DNA of 64,000 bases from Phycisphaerae bacterium (GTDB lineage Bacteria; Planctomycetota; Phycisphaerae; UBA1845; JANYLN01). This document shows positions 30,554 to 47,703 of the stretch, one piece after another (the stretch's first letter is position 1; every line of letters begins with the position of its first letter). Both the position numbers and the translations under genes were made by a program. The DNA lies in NCBI GenBank assembly GCA_041687575.1, contig JAWLBS010000001.1, positions 2,700-66,699 on the forward strand, read 5' to 3'. Below the pieces are notes generated by a model. The model searched no databases. It was given only the letters and a program-made list of their open reading frames with translations, and was not told the DNA's origin.

Positions 30554-31246
30554 CAGAAGTCTGCCATGTCATCGCCGTGTAGGGCGGGCTGCGCCCGCCA
30601 GCCAATGCCGTTGGCAACAAGGCCCTGCAAGGGCCGGATAAGTAAGCCCAGGGGCAAGGCGGCGAAGCCGCCGCGAACCTGGGTGAGCGAGCCGAGTCTT
30701 TGGGAGCCCTGTAAGGGCGACATAACCGCGGGGCCACGTGTGAGATCGTATCGGCCGTGGTCGCGGCGGGGCCGGCTGCCCCCGGATCGATTATCGGGTC
30801 CCTTACAGGTCCCCGGAAAGACAAAGAGGATGGGTGATCGTGCCGCCCGCCGACCCAGGTTCGCGGCCAGTCCCGGCCGCGGGCCGGGACTGGCCTTGCC
30901 CCTGGGCTTACGTGTTTTGGCCCTTGCAGGGCCGGGGATGGCGACGACGGGATCGTCGGCAGCGACCTCGGGTGTGCGATCTGGGCTATTGCCGTAGGCA
31001 TTGTCGTTGTCGTTGTCACAGACCCTGCAGGGCCGAGGAGCCGGTTGACATCGATCGGTCGCTCCGGAAGATGGCGGACAGTCCTGTTCCGGACAGGGAG
31101 AGCGGCCGTTGCCTTTCGACGGTTGCTTTCGTTGGCCCTGCAAGGGCCGGATAGGTAAGCGCAGCCGCCGCGAACCCGGGTCAAAAGGTCTTTTGCCGCG
31201 CCGGCCCTGAAGGGGCCGCAGAACCGCGAAAGCCGGCGAGAGCATG
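30554..31246. repeat. intergenic repeat mosaic, first part of a 1.44-kb non-coding gap
   Basis: REP GTAGGGCGGGCTGCGCCCGCC at 30579-30599. A GGCCCTGCAAGGGCCGGATAAGTAAGC...GCCGCCGCGAACC unit at 30621-30683 and 31134-31180 (direct) and at 30892-30933 (inverted). Further GGxCCCTxxAGGGxCC palindromes. Confidence 0.7.
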
Positions 31247-31435
31247 TCACCGGGTACGGATCTCACGTGGACCCTGCATGATTTCATGCAGGGCGATCCC
31301 CACGGCCACCCCGAGGTTGAGCGAATCCACGCTCTGCCGATGCCGAATGCTTACGGTCGAGCACCCGCCATCCGCGCGGATCACCCGTGGCGGACAGTTG
31401 GATCCACCGGGCCATGCCCCAATCGTGGTGAAGAG
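31247..31435 (-). pseudogene. possible remnant of a SpoU/TrmH-family RNA methyltransferase C-terminus
   Basis: The minus-strand frame reads ...ADGGCSTVSIRHRQSVDSLNLGVAVGIALHEIMQG*, resembling SPOUT motif 3 (IPMxGxxxSLNVSVAxGIxLYE). An adjacent frame reads LGHGPVDPTVRHG*, which would suit the preceding LGxExxG block, implying a frameshift. No intact N-terminal part is present. Confidence 0.35.
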
Positions 31436-31499
31436 TTACATCATCATGTCGGCAAAGCCTCCTCGAACGAGGCGGCAAAGGTCAGTACATCCCTGTGTA

Positions 31500-31998
31500 A
31501 CACGCATGATAGATGTTGCCTGGGTGTCGTGTCAATGGGACGGGGGTGAAAGCCTTTGGATCGTGGCGCCGAACACACCGCTTTCAATCAAGCTGCCATC
31601 GGTGTCCCGCTCACGAATCGATAGGGATCGCTGGTGGCGACTATGGAGTGCGGCGCCGAAGACGCCGCTTTGCCTTCCGCACGGGCTCCAAAGGCGCGCA
31701 ATGTCAACAAGCGGCGTGCGGCACCGAACACACCGCTTTGAATCACGCGTGACGCAGGAGCGAGGTTCAGGAAGCCGGCGCCATGCTCAGCCGAGGGACT
31801 ACCGCGACCTCGCGGTCGCGGCTCTTTCCCTTGCTTACGCCCTGTCCGCAGGATGTGGACATCTCTCGCATCCGGACGACTCCCTCGCTTACGCTTCGGG
31901 CTCCTTCCCGCTCGTCTGTGGGTGCGCTGCTCATGGTGTGGATTCCGTGGCCGCCGGCGCGGCCCGCCCTGCATGGTGGCGTCTGCACCGGCACGCCG
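31500..31998. repeat. intergenic repeat mosaic, second part of the 1.44-kb gap
   Basis: Three inverted copies of the GCGGCG-hairpin unit (31563-31593, 31648-31674, 31716-31748). A composite of about 150 nt at 31803-31952 recurs at 35455-35596. Confidence 0.7.
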
Positions 31999-33489
31999 CT
32001 ACTTCGGTCGCGTCGCCTGCTCCATGTCCAGCCCGGTGTTGTAGTCGAGCTGCCGCGGCTCGTACTCCTCGTTCTCACGCTGGCGGGTCATGCCGGTGTA
32101 GTCCCAGGTCGCCGGCCGCGCGTCGCGCCGCCAGGGGCGCCGCTCCCAGTAGTAGCCGCGGAACGGGTCACGCGTCCGGTTCATCCACTCCAGTATTTTG
32201 TCATGCAGGCCGTCGCGTACCGACCGGCACTCGGGGGCGTCGATCCGGTTGGTCATCTCGGCCGGGTCGCTCGCCAGGTCGTACAGCTCGTCGCCGGCCA
32301 GCAGGTTGATCGAGAGCTTGTACCGCCCGTCCATCGCGCAGCGCAGCGGCTGGAAACCCCCGAACCCGTCGTGGTCGATCTCGTAGCGGTTGAATTCCAT
32401 GAAAATGGTATCGTTCACCCTGGCGTCCGGGTCGGCGAAGGCGGGCAGCATGCTCCGCCCCTCGAGGATCTTCGGGATTGCCAGCCCGAACGACTCCAGG
32501 ATCGACGGCACCACGTCGATGTGCGAGGCGACATGCGGGTTAACCGTCCCGGCCGGCGTGCGCCCGGGCCAGCGGACGATCAGCGGGATCCGCGCGATCT
32601 CGTCGAAGACCGCCGGCCCCTTGCCCCCGATCCGGTGCGAGCCCAGGGCATCGCCGTGGTCGGAGGTGTACAGCACCATCGCATCGGGGCAGTGCTTGTC
32701 GATCGCGTCGAGCACCCGGCCGATCTGGTGGTCGACGAAGGTGTTGCAGCCGAAGAATTCCGGCCGGCGGATCCGCGTGCCCTGCGTGTCCCTCTGCAGG
32801 TTGCCGCCCGCCCAGGCCCGCAGGTGTTCGGGCTTGTCCTCCAGCGAGTCGTGCACGTTCGGCGAGACGGGGAACTCGTAGTCGGCGTACATGTCGTAGT
32901 ACTGCTTCGGGCACAAAAACGGCCCGTGCGGCTCGTCGTAGGAGAGCACCAGCAGGAAGTCTTCGTGCCGGTAACGGTTCAAAAAGTCGATCGCCCGGTC
33001 GCTGCAGCGATGCCCGTATGTGAACGCCTCGGGCACGTCCTCCTGAATCGTCGAAACCTTGCGGCTGCGGACCCGCTCGGCCGGCGAGAGCTCCTCGAGG
33101 TAGCGCCGCATGTCGTACCAGTACGCGTCGTCCCAGCCGTCGGGGCACCGCCCCAGCCCGAAGTAGTCCCCGCCGTCGAGGTGCCACTTGCCGATGTATC
33201 CAGTCCGCACGCCGCTGTCGCGCAGCCGCTGCCCGACCGTCTTGACGTTCTCGCCCAGGGGCATGCTGTTGCCCCACGAACCGTTGGAATGCGGCCACGT
33301 CCCTGTAAACAGCGCCGCCCGCGCCGGCCCGCACACCGGCTGGCATGTGTAGGCCCGCTCGAACCGCATCCCCTCGCCCGCCAGGCGGTCGAGGTTCGGC
33401 GTTTGCAGCCCCGTCCGGCGATAGCAGTTGATCATGTCCCAGCGCTGCGTATCCGTCATGACCAATACGACTTGCCTGCGGTCCGGCAC
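31999..33489 (-). CDS. sulfatase (formylglycine-dependent arylsulfatase family)
   Basis: VLVMTDTQRWD and the active-site context CQPVCGPARAALFTG (C-x-P-x-R). 496 aa. Confidence 0.85.
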   Translation of the reverse strand: MPDRRQVVLVMTDTQRWDMINCYRRTGLQTPNLDRLAGEGMRFERAYTCQPVCGPARAALFTGTWPHSNGSWGNSMPLGENVKTVGQRLRDSGVRTGYIGKWHLDGGDYFGLGRCPDGWDDAYWYDMRRYLEELSPAERVRSRKVSTIQEDVPEAFTYGHRCSDRAIDFLNRYRHEDFLLVLSYDEPHGPFLCPKQYYDMYADYEFPVSPNVHDSLEDKPEHLRAWAGGNLQRDTQGTRIRRPEFFGCNTFVDHQIGRVLDAIDKHCPDAMVLYTSDHGDALGSHRIGGKGPAVFDEIARIPLIVRWPGRTPAGTVNPHVASHIDVVPSILESFGLAIPKILEGRSMLPAFADPDARVNDTIFMEFNRYEIDHDGFGGFQPLRCAMDGRYKLSINLLAGDELYDLASDPAEMTNRIDAPECRSVRDGLHDKILEWMNRTRDPFRGYYWERRPWRRDARPATWDYTGMTRQRENEEYEPRQLDYNTGLDMEQATRPK

Positions 33490-33661
33490 GGTAATGCTCC
33501 TGTCGGTTGCACGCTGACGCGCTTGCGGTCCCTGATGTACGTGTCAGGCTTGCGGCGGCGCGACATCCTCTGACAGGCTGGATTCTACCACATTCCGCGC
33601 GCGGGGCACCACCGGCCGGCGCGACGGGTGGACGGGTCGCGCAGCTGACGGCAACATCAGG

Positions 33662-33773
33662 TTTGTACGATGGTTACGGGAGAGAGGGCGGCTCGGCCGA
33701 GGGCGTGCAGGAATGCAGAACGGGTGGAAAAGAACGACTGATGACTGATGAAGATCTGACCCCCCGTCTTTGC
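33662..33773 (+). repeat. direct repeat, copy 1 (about 94% identical to 35143-35253)
   Basis: TTTGTACGATGGTTACGGGAGAGAGGGCGGCTCGGCCGAGGGCGTGCAGGAATGCAGAACGGGTGGAAAAGAACGACTGATGACTGATGAAGATCTGACCCCCCGTCTTTGC. Confidence 0.85.
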
Positions 33774-33817
33774 GGTGACTCCCCATCTTTTTTTTGGATT
33801 TCATATCCTTTTTGCGC

Positions 33818-33849
33818 TTGTACCCCCCCCCCCCCCCACTTGGTATAAT
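33818..33849 (+). promoter_or_regulatory. extended -10 promoter with a C15 homopolymer in the spacer
   Basis: TTGTAC (33818-33823), C15 (33823-37), ACT, TGgTATAAT (33841-33849). T8 run and AT-rich stretch upstream (33788-33817). Confidence 0.55.
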
Positions 33850-34035
33850 TACCGTGTCTCATCGCGATCTTGTCGTATACCGCCTCATATTTGCGCGGCC
33901 GCTCCGCCGGTGAGCGGTCGCTTGTGCGCGTGATCCAGGGTTCGGGCTCTGCGCGGGTTGGCCGACGCGAACCCGGACCAGCAGTTCTTCGGCAATGGCA
34001 CGGGGATCCCTCCCCGGGCCGCAAGGAGGTGCATC

Positions 34036-35100
34036 ATGAGATGGAGCAGGACACGGGCAGTCAGATGGATGGCAGCGGTGCTGGGGATCTGGCTGGCGAC
34101 CCCGGCTGTGGCGGTAACGCAGTACACGTACGTGGAATTGCCCTCTCTGGGCGGGGGCAGCCGCGGGCTGGGCCTCAACGATGCCGGCCAGGTTGTGGGG
34201 GAGTCGTGGGCACAGGGGCAGAGCGATTCGCCGGTGCCGGTGATCTGGGACGGCGGGGTGCTCGCCGCGCTGCCGACGGGCAGCCATGCCGGCGGATCAG
34301 CCACCGCGATCAACGGCAACGGGACGATTGCCGGCTACCTGCGGACGGGGGACCAGGCCCCGGTGCCGGTCGTCTGGCGCAACGGGCAGATCGATACGTA
34401 TCTCGGTGCGGTCGGGGGTGTCGACACGGTGCCTGAAGCGATCAACGATAGCGGAGTGGTCGTGGGCACTGCGCAATCGAGCGATCCATACGGGCCCTCA
34501 AATGCCCTGCGCTGGTCGCAAGGGGTGGCCCAAGATCTGGGGAACCTCGACTGGCCTTGGAGCGAGGCTCACGACGTCAACAGCGCCGGACAGATTGTCG
34601 GCTGGGCCAGATACTGGCCCTGGAATCCGGATGCGATGTATCTGCCGTGCCTGTGGGAGAACGGGACGATCCGGCAGCTCGATGTAAGTCCAGCTGTAGA
34701 TGGGTATGGTGGTGGGCAGGCCTGGGCAATCAACGAAGCAGGCCAGATCGTGGGCACCCTCAATGGCGCTGCGGTCTTTTGGGAGAACGGGCAGGCAACG
34801 CTCTTGACGGAGACAGGATTTGGGGCGGTCGCGCGGGACATCAATGACCTGGGGCAGATCGTGGGGGGGATTGGTTCAACAGCCGTCCTTTGGGAAGACG
34901 GCCAGGCCTACGATCTCCACGACCTTCTGGACCCCGCTCAGCCGCTTGCCAGGCAATTCATTGGCGCTATCGCTGTCAATAATGCCGGACAGATCCTCGT
35001 AAATGGCGTCAGTCGCAGCTACCTGCTGACTCCCGTCCCTGAGCCGGGCAGCCTAGCCTTGCTGGGCGCAGCCTGCGTTCTGTGGCGGCGCCGGCAGTGA
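34036..35100 (+). CDS. PEP-CTERM-anchored surface protein with HAF-type repeats
   Basis: AAGGAGG before ATG 34036. Signal peptide. Seven or more repeats of the (I/V)N(D/N/E)xGQ(I/V)VG type (LNDAGQVVGE, INDSGVVVGT, VNSAGQIVGW, INEAGQIVGT, INDLGQIVGG, VNNAGQILV). C-terminal PVPEPGSLALLGAACVLWRRRQ. Confidence 0.8.
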   Translation: MRWSRTRAVRWMAAVLGIWLATPAVAVTQYTYVELPSLGGGSRGLGLNDAGQVVGESWAQGQSDSPVPVIWDGGVLAALPTGSHAGGSATAINGNGTIAGYLRTGDQAPVPVVWRNGQIDTYLGAVGGVDTVPEAINDSGVVVGTAQSSDPYGPSNALRWSQGVAQDLGNLDWPWSEAHDVNSAGQIVGWARYWPWNPDAMYLPCLWENGTIRQLDVSPAVDGYGGGQAWAINEAGQIVGTLNGAAVFWENGQATLLTETGFGAVARDINDLGQIVGGIGSTAVLWEDGQAYDLHDLLDPAQPLARQFIGAIAVNNAGQILVNGVSRSYLLTPVPEPGSLALLGAACVLWRRRQ

Positions 35101-35142: not shown

Positions 35143-35253
35143 TTTGTGTGATGGTTATGGGCGAGAGGGCGGCTCCGCCGAGGGTGTGCAGGGATGCAGA
35201 ACGGGTGGGAAAGAACGACTGATGACTGATGAAGATCTGACCCCCGTCTTTGC
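35143..35253 (+). repeat. direct repeat, copy 2
   Basis: Six substitutions and one C indel relative to 33662-33773. Begins 43 nt after the PEP-CTERM gene stop. Confidence 0.85.
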
Positions 35254-35740
35254 CGAACATCCTGAGTATGCGTTCTGAGGCACAGGCTCTGGCGGACCTG
35301 AGGGATCCGTGTGCCCTTCCCTCGGTCTGCATCCGAGATTGGACAGGCCCGCGGCAGGCATGACGCCCTGCCGCGGGCCTGCCACCTTCAGAGTCCCAAA
35401 CGGGGCCGCCGGTATGATGCAGGAGGCGGGGCGTGTACTCGTCCGAAGATCTGGTGCGACCTCACGGTCGCGGCTCCTTCCCACAGGATGTGGACGCCAT
35501 ACACCCTCAAAACGACAACGGCACCCTCGCTCACGCTTCGGGCTCCTTCCCGCTTGTCTTTGATCGCAACGCTTATCCGAGGGATTCCATGGTCACAAAC
35601 AGCGTGACCATGGTACCCGGCACCCGCCCACTGACCCCTGACCCCTGCCGTTACGACACCCGACACCCGAAACCCGACACCCGGAAACAGTTGCACACAA
35701 CCTCTGTTATCTGGTACTGTTAAGGCAATCGAAGGACCGA
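35254..35740. repeat. intergenic repeat mosaic
   Basis: Composite at 35455-35596 is homologous to 31803-31952. CTGACCCCTGACCCCTGCC at 35631-35649. (CGACACC)n-like tandem at 35655-35685. Confidence 0.65.
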
Positions 35741-35811
35741 ATCAGTGACGGGGCCGTCGCACGTCCGGGATGTTCACCTTACGCGGCCCCGGGTTTGGCG
35801 AGGCCCTTGCC

Positions 35812-38118
35812 ATGGAACATGTCTGGACGGCACGCTGGATACAGGACCCGCGCTTCAGCGGGCTGGCGCCGCGGGACCTGCTGCACCCCGAGCACCAGCC
35901 GCGCGACCTGCCCGCCCACGAGCCCGGCCTGCGGAACGTGCACATGCTCGTCCGCAAGGAGTTCGACCTGCCCGAGCCGCCGGGACGGGCCGAACTGCTG
36001 ATTACGGCCGATGACTACTATTTGCTCTACATCAACGGCGAATTCGTCGGCCAGGGGCCGGCGCCCGCGTACCACTTCCGGTACAACGTCAACGCCTGGG
36101 ACGTTTCGGATCGGCTGACGGCCGGGCGCAACGTCATCGCGGTGCACGTGTACTACCAGGGCCTGCGCAACCGGGTGTGGAACAGCGCGGACTATCGGCA
36201 GGGAATGCTGGCGGAGCTGGTCGTCCGCACCGCCGCCGGCGGGCACGTGCTGGTCGCCTCGGACGCGACCTGGCGGATGCGGATCAGCGAGGCGTACCGG
36301 GCCGGGCCGATCATCGCTTACGACACGCAGTTCGCGGAGGACATCGACGGCCGGCTGCTGGAGCGCGGCTGGCAGCAGGCGGGGTTCGACGACGCGGCCT
36401 GGACCGCCCCGGCTGAGCGGGCGGTCGAGCAGACGGATTACACATTCGTGATGCAATCGACGCCGCCGCCAGCCGTGTACGACGTCGAGCCGGTGGAGGT
36501 CCGCCGCCTGGGGCAGGGGCGCTACCGGCTGGACTTCGGGCGGGAGATCACCGGGCGGCTGAAGGTGCGGGTGGCCGGGCCGGCGGGGCACCGCATCGAG
36601 GTGCGGTGCGGGGAGGAGCTCGAGCCGGACGGGTCGGTGCGGTACCGGATGCGGTGCAACTGCGATTACCAGGATTTCTACACCCTGGCGGGGGTGGACG
36701 GCGAGCAGGTCGAGTTCTTCGACTACAAGGCGTTTCGCTACGCCGAGGTGCTGGGCGCAGCCGGCGAGGTGGGGGCGGGCGATGTGCGGGCGATCGTGCG
36801 TCACTACCCGTGGCCGGACAGTGCCGCGACGCTGCGGACGAGCAACCCGGTGCTGGATGAGATCTGGGCGATCTGCGCCAATGGCGTGCGGTGCTGCTGC
36901 CAGGAGACGATCGTCGACTGCCCCAGCCGGGAAAAGGGGCAATACCTCAACGATGCGGCCGTCAGCGCGCACGCGCACATGCTGCTGACGGGCGACACCC
37001 GGCTGACGCGCAAGGCCCTGGCCGACGCCGCCGCCAGCGGGCGGTTCTGTCCGGGGCTGGCGGCGGTCGCGCCGGGCAGTTTCATGCAGGAGATCGCCGA
37101 GGCGAGCCTGCTGTGGCCGGTGCTGTTGCGGGAGTATTACCTGCACAGCGGGGACGAGGCGTTTCTGCGGGAGATGCTGCCGGTGCTGGACGGGCTGGTG
37201 CACTACTTCCAGCGGCATGAGAACGAGGGGGGGCTGCTGGCGGACCTGCAGGAAAAGTGGAACCTTGTGGACTGGCCCGCCAATGCCCGGGACGGCTACG
37301 ACTTCGACCTGAGCCCGCGGACCGGCGGGCAGGGGTGCCAGTGCGTGCTCAACGGGCACTATTACAGGTTCCTGGAGGCGGTGGCGGACTGCCGGCTGGC
37401 GGCGGGGCTGGACGTGGCCCGCGCGTGGCAGCGCCGCCGGGCGGCGTTCACCGAGGCGTTCACGCGGACGTTTCAGGACTCCCGGACGGGCCTGTTCGTC
37501 GATGCGGTCGGCAGCAACCACTCGTCGCTGCACGCCAATGCGATGGCGCTGTGCGCGGGGCTGGTCTCGCCGGCGGCGCTGCCGGCCGTATTGTCACTGC
37601 TGCAGGCGAAGGGGATGGCGTGCGGCGTGTGGTTTGCGAGCTTCCTGCTGCAGGGGCTGATCCAGGCGGGTCAGTCGGAGCTGGCGATCTACCTGATGAC
37701 GCGGGACGACCCGCGGTCGTGGCAGAACATGCTCGGCGAGGACGCGACGGCGTGTTTCGAGGCGTGGGGCGTCGATCAGAAGTGGAACACGAGCCTGTGC
37801 CACGCGTGGGCGGCTGGTCCGGTGGCGCTGCTGGTGGAGGGGATGCTGGGGGTGCAGCATGTGGAGGCGGGCTGGCGGGCGGTGCGGATCGAGCCGCGGA
37901 TGCCGCGGATGTTGCAGTCGGTGGCGCTGCAGTTGCCGCTGCCAGCCGGGACGCTGAACGTATCGTATTCGCGATCCGGGCGGCTGGAGATCTGCTCGGT
38001 GCACCTGCCGCGCGAGGTGCGGCTGGTCGAGCCGTCGCGGGGTCCGGGCTGCTGGCAGGTCCGCACGGCCGACGCGGCGCGGGGGGCCTGGCTGTTGGAG
38101 CGGACGCGGGTGCGGTGA
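35812..38118 (+). CDS. alpha-L-rhamnosidase-like glycoside hydrolase (GH78-like)
   Basis: Start at MEHVWTARWI. ITADDYYLLYINGEFVGQGP (rhamnosidase N-terminal domain pattern) and DCPSREKGQYLNDA (compare DCPxRE+xGWxGD of the six-hairpin catalytic domain). Confidence 0.7.
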   Translation: MEHVWTARWIQDPRFSGLAPRDLLHPEHQPRDLPAHEPGLRNVHMLVRKEFDLPEPPGRAELLITADDYYLLYINGEFVGQGPAPAYHFRYNVNAWDVSDRLTAGRNVIAVHVYYQGLRNRVWNSADYRQGMLAELVVRTAAGGHVLVASDATWRMRISEAYRAGPIIAYDTQFAEDIDGRLLERGWQQAGFDDAAWTAPAERAVEQTDYTFVMQSTPPPAVYDVEPVEVRRLGQGRYRLDFGREITGRLKVRVAGPAGHRIEVRCGEELEPDGSVRYRMRCNCDYQDFYTLAGVDGEQVEFFDYKAFRYAEVLGAAGEVGAGDVRAIVRHYPWPDSAATLRTSNPVLDEIWAICANGVRCCCQETIVDCPSREKGQYLNDAAVSAHAHMLLTGDTRLTRKALADAAASGRFCPGLAAVAPGSFMQEIAEASLLWPVLLREYYLHSGDEAFLREMLPVLDGLVHYFQRHENEGGLLADLQEKWNLVDWPANARDGYDFDLSPRTGGQGCQCVLNGHYYRFLEAVADCRLAAGLDVARAWQRRRAAFTEAFTRTFQDSRTGLFVDAVGSNHSSLHANAMALCAGLVSPAALPAVLSLLQAKGMACGVWFASFLLQGLIQAGQSELAIYLMTRDDPRSWQNMLGEDATACFEAWGVDQKWNTSLCHAWAAGPVALLVEGMLGVQHVEAGWRAVRIEPRMPRMLQSVALQLPLPAGTLNVSYSRSGRLEICSVHLPREVRLVEPSRGPGCWQVRTADAARGAWLLERTRVR

Positions 38119-40120: not shown

Positions 40121-40499
40121 TTGCCAGTGGATCCTTCGCGTTGCTCAGGATGACAGCAGAGGATCGCTCCAAGAGGCAGAGATCCTTCACTGCGTTCAGG
40201 ATGACAGCGTGTGGCGGGCGCCGTTCGACTCGCTTGGCTCGCTCACGGCCGGCAGCCCGCCCTACACGGTGGCATCGTCGCCAGCGGCATGGATTTGGTG
40301 GGCAGATAGCCCACCCTACAGCCCTGCCTCCTGCCGTTGTTGTCGTTCATCCGCGTTCAATCCGCGTTCATCCGTGGCTGAAATCGTCGTTGCTGTTGCC
40401 GTGGTTGTTGTCCCTGATCCCGCCCCCCCCCCAACCCGCTCATCCATCCACGGCCGATGCCGCCGTTTCATGTTGTCATGTTGTCACGGTGTCATATCC
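40121..40499. repeat. intergenic repeat mosaic
   Basis: Two GATCCTTC..CTCAGGATGAC arms. REP long form at 40213-40265. GGTGGGCAGATAGCCCACCCTAC at 40297-40319. About 130 nt (40295-40420) is the inverted homologue of 5355-5485. C10 at 40423-40432. TTGTCAYG tandem at 40469-40499. Confidence 0.75.
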
Positions 40500-43154: not shown

Positions 43155-43727
43155 TTACTTGCGGCGACGGATGATCGCCAGACCGCCCAGCGCCAGCAGC
43201 GCCATCGTGGCCGGCTCGGGAACCACGTTGATCGTGGCGCCAGTGACCGTGCCCAGACCGCCGTAGCTGCTGTCCAGCGGCATCCAGCCGGCGAACGAGC
43301 CTTCGACGAAGCTCAGCCCAACCACGCCCTCAGCAAGCCCCGCGACGGTGTACGTGGCGAACGGCTTCCACTGCAGGTCGGCCCAGTTGTCGGCATTCGT
43401 CACGCCCGTGCGGACCGAACCGAAACCAGCGACGCCACCGTTGGCGGCGCTGCCGATCGCATACGGGAAGCTGCTCGAGGCCAGGTAGGCCCCGTCGAAC
43501 GCCAGAGTGCCGACGTTGCCGAGCACGCCGGCCTGACTCGGGACCACGCTGCCGGCCAGGGCGTACACGCCCACGCCCGCTGTGCCCGTGGTCACTTCGA
43601 CCGTCACAACCGTCTCCTGGCCGATAAGAATCTCCGTGTCAGTCGGCACGATCCGGACATTGACCACACCCAGACTCGGGGCCGCCAGAAGACCAACCAC
43701 CACCAATGCCATCACAAAGTTCCGCAT
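43155..43727 (-). CDS. PEP-CTERM-anchored secreted protein
   Basis: Signal peptide MRNFVMALVVVGLLAAPSLG. C-terminal VPEPATMALLALGGLAIIRRRK. Confidence 0.8.
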   Translation of the reverse strand: MRNFVMALVVVGLLAAPSLGVVNVRIVPTDTEILIGQETVVTVEVTTGTAGVGVYALAGSVVPSQAGVLGNVGTLAFDGAYLASSSFPYAIGSAANGGVAGFGSVRTGVTNADNWADLQWKPFATYTVAGLAEGVVGLSFVEGSFAGWMPLDSSYGGLGTVTGATINVVPEPATMALLALGGLAIIRRRK

Positions 43728-43814
43728 GCTCCATCCTCCTTAAGGATTCGTTGCAGATTTTTCTGCTGTGCGTGGACCCACGTCCACGCACTCTCGAACA
43801 CAATACATCGAACA

Positions 43815-45089
43815 TTACTGCGCCGGGATCGTCTTGAGCCAGTCGCTCGCCAAGGCCAGCAGATCCAGCACGTTGATCATGCCGTCCTGCTTGAGGTCCG
43901 CGTCCGGGTCCCAGTTCGGCGAGTTCGTGTTCGACAGCCACGCGTTGGCAAGCCGCAGCAGGTCGAGCACGTTGACGGTGCCGTCATTGTTGATGTCGCC
44001 GGCCAGCGTGGCGGTCACGGTGATGTACGGCCCGTACAGCCCGCCGCTCTGGTCGCGGGTCCAGTACGAGTTGTTCCACATCTGCTCGCCGGGGTAGATA
44101 ATCGGGGCATTGGAGGCATCCAGCACCAGGCCCTTGACCTCGCCATTCGGATTACCTATGGCTTCGACGATGGCCCGGTCGACCGGCGTGCCGTACCAGC
44201 CTTCGGCGCCGGTGCCGTCGTTGCCGAAGTCACGCGGCTCCAGTTCGCCATAGGCGCCCGTGCAGTCGAACCAGTCGATCGGCTTGCTGTTGATCATCTG
44301 GCCGGTGGTGGCCGCATTCAACATGATCCAGCCGAACGCGAACCGGGTGGCCGAGGCGCTCCAGCCGCCGTAGCCATTGCCCGCATCGAAAAAGGCCTGG
44401 CCGGCATGTACTTCCTGGCCGGCGTTTTCGGCCGCGGCGTTGGACAGCTTGTAGTACTCGCCGCCCGGGCCGATGTCACCCAGCTGGGCGTAGCCCAAGG
44501 TGCCGTCGCGATCGACCGTCGGCGGCCCCACCCGCCATGCGACCGGGGCGTTCTCGCCACCTTCGAGCCGGGGCGCGGTGTAGGTGCCGCCGGCGCCGGT
44601 GAAGCCGTTGCCCAGGTCGCCGCGGTCGACGAAGTTGCCGGCGTTGCCGACGCGGAAGCCGATGATCTGGATCGGGTCATTGAGCCAATAGCCCTGGCCG
44701 GTGTGGTCGCAGGTGTTCCACGAGTTGTCGCGGAAGTATGCCGCGGCCCTGACGACCTTCTTTCCGACGAGCCAGTCGGCCAGGTACTCCCCGTCATCGC
44801 TGTCGTTGACGCCGCCTTTGTTCCGGCCGTCCGGGATGCCGTCGGGGCCGTCGCTGCGGCCATCGAAGGCCCAGTACCCGAACTGCTGTGCACCCTTGGC
44901 CAGGCGGCAGGCGCCGTCACCGCCGATGCCATAGCCTTCGGGAGAATACAGACCAGCAATCCCGTAAAAGGCAGACATCGAGCCGTCGGCCGTGGTCGGC
45001 CATATGTCGACATACAATGCCGCCTGGGAAACACCGGCAAATGCCAGACACGACAACAGCGCCAGTCCCACAATCAAACTTCTCTGCAT
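43815..45089 (-). CDS. secreted protein with C-terminal dockerin module
   Basis: Signal peptide. Two dockerin-type Ca-binding segments, GDINNDGTVNVLDLLRLA and DLKQDGMINVLDLLALA. The N-terminal ~340 aa are unassigned. Confidence 0.7.
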   Translation of the reverse strand: MQRSLIVGLALLSCLAFAGVSQAALYVDIWPTTADGSMSAFYGIAGLYSPEGYGIGGDGACRLAKGAQQFGYWAFDGRSDGPDGIPDGRNKGGVNDSDDGEYLADWLVGKKVVRAAAYFRDNSWNTCDHTGQGYWLNDPIQIIGFRVGNAGNFVDRGDLGNGFTGAGGTYTAPRLEGGENAPVAWRVGPPTVDRDGTLGYAQLGDIGPGGEYYKLSNAAAENAGQEVHAGQAFFDAGNGYGGWSASATRFAFGWIMLNAATTGQMINSKPIDWFDCTGAYGELEPRDFGNDGTGAEGWYGTPVDRAIVEAIGNPNGEVKGLVLDASNAPIIYPGEQMWNNSYWTRDQSGGLYGPYITVTATLAGDINNDGTVNVLDLLRLANAWLSNTNSPNWDPDADLKQDGMINVLDLLALASDWLKTIPAQ

Positions 45090-45470
45090 ACACCTCTCCT
45101 TTCACAGATACCTCGCCTCCCCAAGTCCGCTTGGGGCGGCATTATCCCTCCAAGAAGGGCAAATCTCGTGCCGGAGGCAGATTGCCGTCCGGCACCTATA
45201 GGCAATGATTTGTAAGCCCTTGTGCAGTAGTGTCTTACGGATGCACGTTTGGATTGATTCGTCTTGCGGGAAATGGTCGGGTTGTTCGGAATGTTTCCCG
45301 GATGCAACACATCGTGCCGAAGGTGCGAACGCGTACTGGAAGCGGGGGAAATACGCGGCGACAAAGGCAGCAAAGACGGAACAGACAAAAAACGCATAAC
45401 ACCGCCTGAACTCATCACTAATGCGATGTTCTGAACATGATCCAGTCGGAGAGCACCTCCAACACAAGGC

Positions 45471-47675: not shown

Positions 47676-47703
47676 TTGAATTCCTTCTGGCCAACGGTAC
47701 AAT
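47676..47703 (+). promoter_or_regulatory. sigma70-type promoter of rpmB
   Basis: TTGAAT (47676-47681), 16 nt, TACAAT (47698-47703). Confidence 0.5.

Follow-up and report, generated by a model that had tools for sequence, protein, structure and literature searches.

A 15-nucleotide poly-C tract within the predicted promoter of a HAF-repeat PEP-CTERM gene: a candidate phase-variable promoter in a Phycisphaerae bacterium

Can a homopolymer placed within a promoter tune the amount of a surface protein in a planctomycete? This question is raised by a 64,000-nucleotide (nt) stretch of a metagenome-assembled contig from a Phycisphaerae bacterium (JAWLBS010000001.1; hereafter, the window), in which 15 uninterrupted cytosines (C15; 33823-33837 on the plus strand, G15 on the minus strand) lie between the putative -35 and -10 elements of a gene for a secreted protein with HAF repeats and a PEP-CTERM sorting tail (hereafter, the HAF gene). 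PEP-CTERM/exosortase is a protein-sorting system, the regulation of which is poorly understood. Replication slippage, or slipped-strand mispairing, adds or removes homopolymer residues, and G/C runs of about 8 nt or more are enough for it to occur at high frequency; the C15 tract exceeds this length, which also marks homopolymeric phase-variable promoters. An earlier note on this DNA had proposed that the tract is a candidate phase-variable switch. Here, we report the anatomy and rarity of the tract, the identity of the gene behind it, the insert in which both are found and the recurrence of the same architecture in metagenomes. A phase-variable promoter is a plausible reading of this sequence, and we see roughly even chances that C15 modulates transcription of the HAF gene through slippage; if so, we expect graded tuning rather more than strict on/off switching.

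The length of the tract is far beyond chance, because runs of C12 or longer are expected only 0.04 times per window in dinucleotide-preserving shuffles and none is present in 1.38 Mb of related sequence, namely 80 Phycisphaerae/Planctomycetota loci (L001-L080) in which the longest run is a single C11. Within the window, which has a GC content of 66.4%, the only other homopolymers of at least 8 nt are a T8 in the same region (33788-33795) and a C10 at 40423-40432.

Some separate observations concern such runs. In the related loci, the C11 (L035, 1089-1099) occupies an intergenic gap between divergent genes and is closely followed by a -10-like TAGTATAAC and a zinc-ribbon protein gene. G/C homopolymers of at least 9 nt number eight, six in L001-L080 and two in the window, and every one reads C on the dnaE-encoding strand, which could reflect a strand asymmetry; the numbers are small, and the bias is not seen for runs of 7-8 nt. 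A 35-codon open reading frame (ORF) that crosses the tract (33741-33848) was rejected, as it carries no coding signal in our reading of its GC content at third codon positions (GC3).

What, then, does the tract separate? On its downstream side, after ACT, lies TGgTATAAT (TGGTATAAT; 33841-33849, plus strand), in which TG stands one base before TATAAT, as in extended -10 promoters of the sigma70 type. We predict it to be the core promoter of the HAF gene; the window has a single TGNTATAAT, against an expectation of 0.08. On the upstream side lies the -35-like hexamer TTGTAC (33818-33823, plus strand), the last base of which is the first C of the tract and which matches TTGACA at three of six positions. 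The gap from TTGTAC to TGGTATAAT is filled by C15, and the spacer between the two hexamers (33824-33843) measures 20 nt; a C12 tract would give 17 nt. No alternative TTG-type hexamer was found 16-18 nt from the -10, where the sequence reads ACCCCC, TACCCC and GTACCC. An automated promoter scan was silent at the locus, as it accepts only spacers of 16-18 nt and hexamers with four or more of six matches. Sigma70-type promoters with spacers of 16-18 nt do appear to occur in this organism, to judge from the promoter sequences of tRNA-Val (TTGAAA-17-TATAGT), tRNA-Pro (TTGACA-18-TAGACT) and rpmB (TTGAAT-16-TACAAT at 47676-47703, upstream of an L28-like ORF).

Upstream, the plus-strand segment 33786-33822 is AT-rich and comprises the T8 and, at 33796-33808, the small palindrome GGATttcatATCC. 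The segment may serve as an UP element or bind an activator, and its distance to the -10 would also be set by the length of the tract. Transcription is predicted to start at G 33856, which would give a 5' leader of about 180 nt (33856-34035, plus strand) carrying the Shine-Dalgarno sequence AAGGAGG at 34023-34029. A riboswitch or other structured leader was considered and rejected: the leader had no relevant Rfam match at the gathering score or at E values up to 5, and its fold was not better than those of shuffled sequences (z = -1.35).

The strongest support for this promoter at the sequence level comes from the gap in which it lies. The HAF gene is divergent from a sulfatase gene (31999-33489, minus strand; 496 amino acids, aa; PF00884, E = 3.6e-52; GC3 0.92), and the 546-nt intergenic region between them (33490-34035) contains both of the TGNTANAAT sites that the window has, one directed at each gene. 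The site facing the sulfatase, TGGTAGAAT (33582-33590, minus strand), is located about 93 nt upstream of the GTG start and is an extended -10 with no recognizable -35. The two sites are presumably the promoters of the two genes, and their placement, both within the gap, is the best evidence for this. Since C15 is at least 233 nt from the sulfatase -10, it should not act directly on the sulfatase promoter. An invertible promoter was rejected here, the best flanking inverted pair being 31 nt long and 71% complementary, with one arm inside the sulfatase coding region.

The gene behind the promoter (34036-35100, plus strand) encodes a 354-aa protein, and the tract region is 187 nt upstream of it. 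The N-terminus resembles a signal peptide. The HAF repeat is recognized by TIGR02913 (65.8 bits; cut-off 22.65), and the PEP-CTERM tail by both PF07589 (25.6 bits; cut-off 20.7) and TIGR02595 (19.4 bits; cut-off 16); the C-terminus, ...VPEPGSLALLGAACVLWRRRQ followed by the stop codon, combines a PEP motif, a hydrophobic helix and a basic cluster. Homologues of the protein carry PF11949 (HAF family, TIGR02913/DUF3466). Thus, like the targets of phase-variable loci, the product is a secreted or surface protein. Its gene also contains internal DNA repeats, with 34-nt units spaced by 135 or about 265 nt, and a G7 run within the coding sequence (34863-34869) that is a weaker potential frameshift site. 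No exosortase was found among the 15 window proteins scanned, which represent 64 kb of the genome. A second PEP-CTERM gene in the window (43155-43727; 190 aa; PF07589, 29.1 bits) suggests that an exosortase system is present in the genome. This second gene directly follows, on the minus strand, a gene for a dockerin-repeat protein (together 43155-45101), with a short hairpin between the two.

These results largely agree with what the earlier note had read from the DNA. Its positions for the T8, TTGTAC, C15, ACT, TGgTATAAT, AAGGAGG and the ATG at 34036 proved exact when the sequence was re-read, a recount gave the same spacers of 20 nt now and 17 nt at C12, and all three of the sigma70-spaced promoters that it had listed (tRNA-Val, tRNA-Pro and rpmB) are present as sequences. 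The GC content that it had put in the mid-60s (%) and the distance of about 190 nt from the tract region to the ATG are matched by the measured values given above, and the PEP-CTERM/HAF surface protein that it had placed downstream is borne out by scores above the cut-offs of both TIGR02913 and PF07589. Its description of the promoter as near-consensus holds for the -10, TGgTATAAT, and fails for the -35, in which TTGTAC has three of six matches.

How might such a tract act? In the mechanism that we propose, C15 would be a slippage-prone homopolymer filling the promoter spacer of a surface-protein gene, and TTGTAC-20 nt-TGgTATAAT would drive expression of a secreted HAF-repeat protein, the PEP-CTERM tail of which would make it a cargo for exosortase sorting. 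From what is established of slipped-strand mispairing, the C run would be expected to gain or lose residues at replication. At C15, the -35-like TTG would be 20 nt from the -10 and out of register, so that transcription would proceed on the extended -10 alone, at a low or basal level; at C13 or C12, a spacing of 18 or 17 nt should make for a much stronger promoter. Length changes would also alter the position of the AT-rich segment with respect to the -10. The net outcome would be a heritable, reversible and stochastic tuning of the amount of the surface protein in each lineage. Control is expected to be graded because an extended -10 can work without a -35 and because the sulfatase promoter at this same locus also has no recognizable -35.

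Does the same layout occur elsewhere? Metagenomes were searched for C11 or longer followed by 2-8 nt and then TGNTATAAT, which returned at least 120 loci; of the matches listed, many are noise or artefacts of contig ends. A set of at least 15 contigs (55-63% GC; at least one labelled as a human-gut metagenome assembly) carries one surface-protein family (L086, L087, L093, L107, L128, L129, L132, L137, L144, L148, L172, L173, L181, L185 and L201; N-terminus MISYRKLAMRVLGHSPVSA...). In this family, ...CTTGCA is followed by C11-14, then by 4-6 nt (GGAGAG, GAAAG or GAAG) and then by TGGTATAAT, with inferred -35/-10 spacers of 17-21 nt; downstream, a leader of 55-61 nt with AAGGAGG precedes a signal-peptide protein of 615-764 aa with GAGIGGG repeats. 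At a common 120-nt upstream flank, the tract is C11 in L107, C12 in L129 and C13 in L173, and in a second flank-sharing set it is C11 in L144, L181 and L185 and C12 in L132. SpoVD/SpoVE models are the best matches of neighbouring genes, which points to a Firmicute as the probable source organism. Among the further matches in which a Shine-Dalgarno sequence and a signal peptide are both present, C13 precedes an NHL-repeat lipoprotein (L089/L171), C21 a pilin-like protein (L121) and C14 a large lipoprotein of 991 aa (L140), and a perfect TTGACA abuts C11 before a signal-peptide protein (L189), each run being directly upstream of TGNTATAAT. The layout is a recurring way of placing poly-C before surface-protein genes, and the length of the tract is polymorphic in at least one family.

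The tract and its gene are located in an insert. A 112-nt direct repeat is present in two plus-strand copies, the left of which (33662-33773) ends just before the AT-rich promoter segment and the right of which (35143-35253) starts 42 nt beyond the stop codon of the HAF gene. The two share 92% identity (local alignment score 177; shuffles, 21 +/- 2.6), and they bracket a 1369-nt (1.37-kb) segment that consists of the promoter and the HAF gene. The GC3 of the HAF gene is 0.75, compared with about 0.92 in the sulfatase, a rhamnosidase (35770-38118) and other neighbours, and this atypical value suggests recent acquisition. Removal of the segment together with one repeat copy leaves a plain divergent sulfatase/rhamnosidase pair. 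We infer that the promoter came in with its leader and gene, as one 1.37-kb insert that lies between this pair and is bracketed by the repeats; single-crossover integration of circular DNA carrying a copy of the repeat is one possible route. The cassette had no blastn match among plasmids and phages, and the repeat motif was absent from the viral contigs searched. This repeat-bracketed insert of atypical codon composition had been missed by the earlier note, from which the sulfatase gap and its promoter were also absent; the upstream gene is not co-directional with the HAF gene.

Part of the repeat (ACTRATGACTRATGAAGnTCTGACCCC...) recurs in a distant Phycisphaerales metagenome-assembled genome (MAG; L015, 105-146; nhmmer E = 4e-4) and nowhere else among the data examined. 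In that MAG it adjoins, on the opposite strand, the apparent N-terminus of a Y1-transposase-like protein. Owing to its CTGATGACTGATGA, the 112-nt repeat has stop codons in two reading frames. A hammerhead-like reading of its CUGAUGACUGAUGA was dropped, as there was no Rfam match, and so was a structured RNA, for which two copies are too few and covariation is not convincing.

Searches for a second copy of the locus were negative. Exact-protein look-ups for the HAF protein and the sulfatase returned nothing on record. The DnaE encoded in the window has its closest relative, at 84% identity, in a Planctomycetota MAG (L001), and its remaining matches, at 63% identity or less, are likewise labelled as Planctomycetota or Phycisphaerae MAGs; in a dnaE-anchored genome scan, synteny ended right after dnaE even in L001, and no locus encoded the HAF protein. 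The closest sulfatase homologues (78% identity) occur in unrelated contexts, and the two flanks, sought in metagenomes with a gap of variable length between them, gave 0 matches. The next HAF homologue is only 39% identical (L205); about 320-370 nt upstream of its gene, which begins at 691, is a (CGTCC)8 tandem repeat that could also vary in length. Another homologue, 41% identical, has a promoter-like TTGACG-16-TATATA about 340 nt upstream, so long leaders occur in the HAF family. Poly-C is not general to HAF or PEP-CTERM genes.

Tracts of this kind have been described in other bacteria. The closest precedent, not named by the earlier note, is found in the fim2, fim3 and fimX genes of Bordetella pertussis and B. 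bronchiseptica, in which a C-stretch of up to C19 lies between an activator region and the -10 in a high-GC genome, varies between strains and within cultures and, in fimX, altered the transcript level about 3.8-fold upon a single-base change (PMC1891110). The two cases share a long poly-C immediately upstream of the -10 of a gene for a surface structure in a high-GC bacterium. In Bordetella, however, the tract sets the BvgA activator region apart from the -10, the products are fimbrial subunits of a host-restricted pathogen and variation has been demonstrated, whereas the locus reported here is read from its sequence, belongs to Planctomycetota, carries PEP-CTERM/HAF cargo and has no known activator. 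A second group comprises the poly-G of porA in Neisseria meningitidis and the TA repeats of hifA/hifB in Haemophilus influenzae, which set transcription from within the -35/-10 spacer and with which vlp of Mycoplasma hyorhinis is grouped (PMC3899988). These resemble our locus in that a simple repeat in the spacer alters promoter strength stepwise for surface proteins and, in hifA/hifB, also lies within a divergent intergenic region. They differ in that their promoters need the -35, whereas here the -35 is weak and the -10 extended, so that a graded effect is more likely; moreover, the hif repeat acts in both directions, which C15 should not do at its distance from the sulfatase -10.

The gut metagenome family shares with the window the order of a TTG-type -35, a poly-C tract, a few nt, TGGTATAAT, a leader with AAGGAGG and a signal-peptide protein; in the family, these are TTGCA, C11-14 and 4-6 nt, and tract lengths differ between flank-sharing contigs. 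It belongs to another phylum, however, its GAGIGGG-repeat protein has no PEP-CTERM tail, its leader is short and it is represented by several copies, paralogous or from different strains, where the window has a unique locus. Extended -10 sigma70 promoters have the same exact TGn plus consensus hexamer as the window; they are a promoter class rather than a switch, and their independence of the -35 is the main doubt about strict on/off control. More broadly, homopolymeric tracts have been proposed as a general regulatory device in prokaryotes (PMC2831843), and in Akkermansia, a relative within the Planctomycetes-Verrucomicrobia-Chlamydiae (PVC) group, long runs were noted in coding regions (PMC3048395). 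Our full-text literature searches found no paper linking promoter homopolymers with PEP-CTERM cargo or Planctomycetes, in keeping with the earlier note, which knew of no such case. If real, the locus would probably be one more case of a known kind of switch, found in a new phylum and with a new class of cargo, and not a new mechanism.

Several points weigh against phase variation at this promoter. In the weak -35, only the TTG of TTGTAC matches. TGnTATAAT promoters can work without a -35, and for this reason the length of the C tract may tune expression more than switch it, and spacing may matter little. The start of transcription is a prediction and would entail the leader of about 180 nt. 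Among the metagenome matches listed, a TTG abutting the tract is only modestly enriched (14 of 82 independent matches; displaced controls, about 7), with one family supplying about half of the 14. The exact HAF protein (P0001) is a singleton recorded on one NCBI contig of 73,417 bp, the synteny and flank-pattern searches yielded no further copy of the locus, and homopolymers are absent upstream of the closest HAF homologues and of the second PEP-CTERM gene (43155-43727). Finally, the C10 of the window is found between convergent genes, for a 4Fe-4S/FMN-domain protein and a ketopantoate reductase, and so cannot be a promoter element. Part of this would fit a tract that is hypermutable but without functional consequence, a by-product of the AT-rich, recently inserted cassette next to a promoter that works on its extended -10 alone, with no selected switch. 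We regard this explanation as possible, if on the doubtful side. It draws on the poor match of the -35, on the C10 in a non-promoter gap, on the lack of conservation of poly-C among HAF homologues and on the atypical GC3 of a gene within a repeat-bracketed insert; in addition, the sulfatase promoter suggests that -35-independent promoters are normal here. Nevertheless, a pure C15 is an extreme outlier for the clade, and a neutral tract would be expected to have been shortened or interrupted. It is also placed exactly between the TTG and the -10, in a layout that recurs, with differences in length, before surface-protein genes in metagenomes.

A tract with a function could also act in another way, by setting the distance or helical phase between the -10 and a regulator or UP-element site in the T8 and GGATttcatATCC, with TTGTAC being irrelevant. 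In favour of this, an AT-rich block and a small palindrome lie immediately upstream of the tract, the C-stretch of the Bordetella fim genes separates an activator-binding region from the -10 (PMC1891110), and the inferred -35/-10 spacers of the metagenome analogues listed are mostly longer than 17 nt. On the other side, no regulator is known, the palindrome has arms of only 4 bp and a fold that is not significant (z = -1.63), and no orthologous promoters were found in which conservation of the site could be checked; we consider this explanation improbable. An error of sequencing or assembly, by which the tract would be absent or its length wrong enough to alter the argument, is more improbable still. 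Homopolymers of such length are error-prone on all sequencing platforms, the source is a metagenome-assembled contig, the protein is recorded only there and, among the metagenome matches listed, many very long C runs sit at contig ends and look artefactual. The tract reported here, in contrast, is internal, 33.8 kb into the window and between unique flanks, and long genes such as that of the 1202-aa DnaE are intact, so the assembly is not riddled with homopolymer indels. The exact length could be off by a base or two, which would leave the feature standing.

Some further features of the neighbourhood may be recorded. Between dnaE and the sulfatase gene, at the 3' end of the latter, a stretch of about 1.4 kb (30554-31998) shows no clear third-position GC signal; neither Pfam nor NCBIfam matches its longest ORF (245 aa, minus strand), and the stretch may consist of degraded or foreign DNA. 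The gap that holds the C10 also contains, at 40131-40210, two copies of a motif of about 28 nt, GATCCTTC..TGC.TCAGGATGACAGC. On the 3' side of the HAF gene and of the right repeat copy, a perfect 15-bp inverted repeat with an 8-nt loop and no T-run after it (35344-35381) could form a terminator-like hairpin.

What would a slippage-tuned promoter at this locus mean? To our knowledge, nearly all documented cases of repeat-mediated phase variation come from host-associated pathogens. We suggest, tentatively and with more doubt than confidence, that the locus is the first repeat-driven contingency promoter in Planctomycetota, through which a free-living polysaccharide degrader stochastically varies the amount of an exosortase-sorted HAF protein, and that it forms a mobile switch-plus-gene cassette that entered by recombination at a 112-nt element, part of which is conserved in other Phycisphaerae. 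If the tract is invariant or without effect, the locus is merely an unusual promoter in an inserted gene. If the proposal is true, the length of the tract in each read would be a simple metagenome marker of population heterogeneity, and varying the HAF surface protein could serve escape from phage or grazers, or variation in attachment. The insert, with its flanking repeats, points to a way in which switchable surface genes might be gained; mobile cassettes of switch plus gene and phase-variable exosortase cargo would then occur in environmental bacteria also, and not only in host-adapted pathogens. A working planctomycete example would thereby extend bet-hedging to free-living environmental bacteria and to PEP-CTERM/exosortase cargo.

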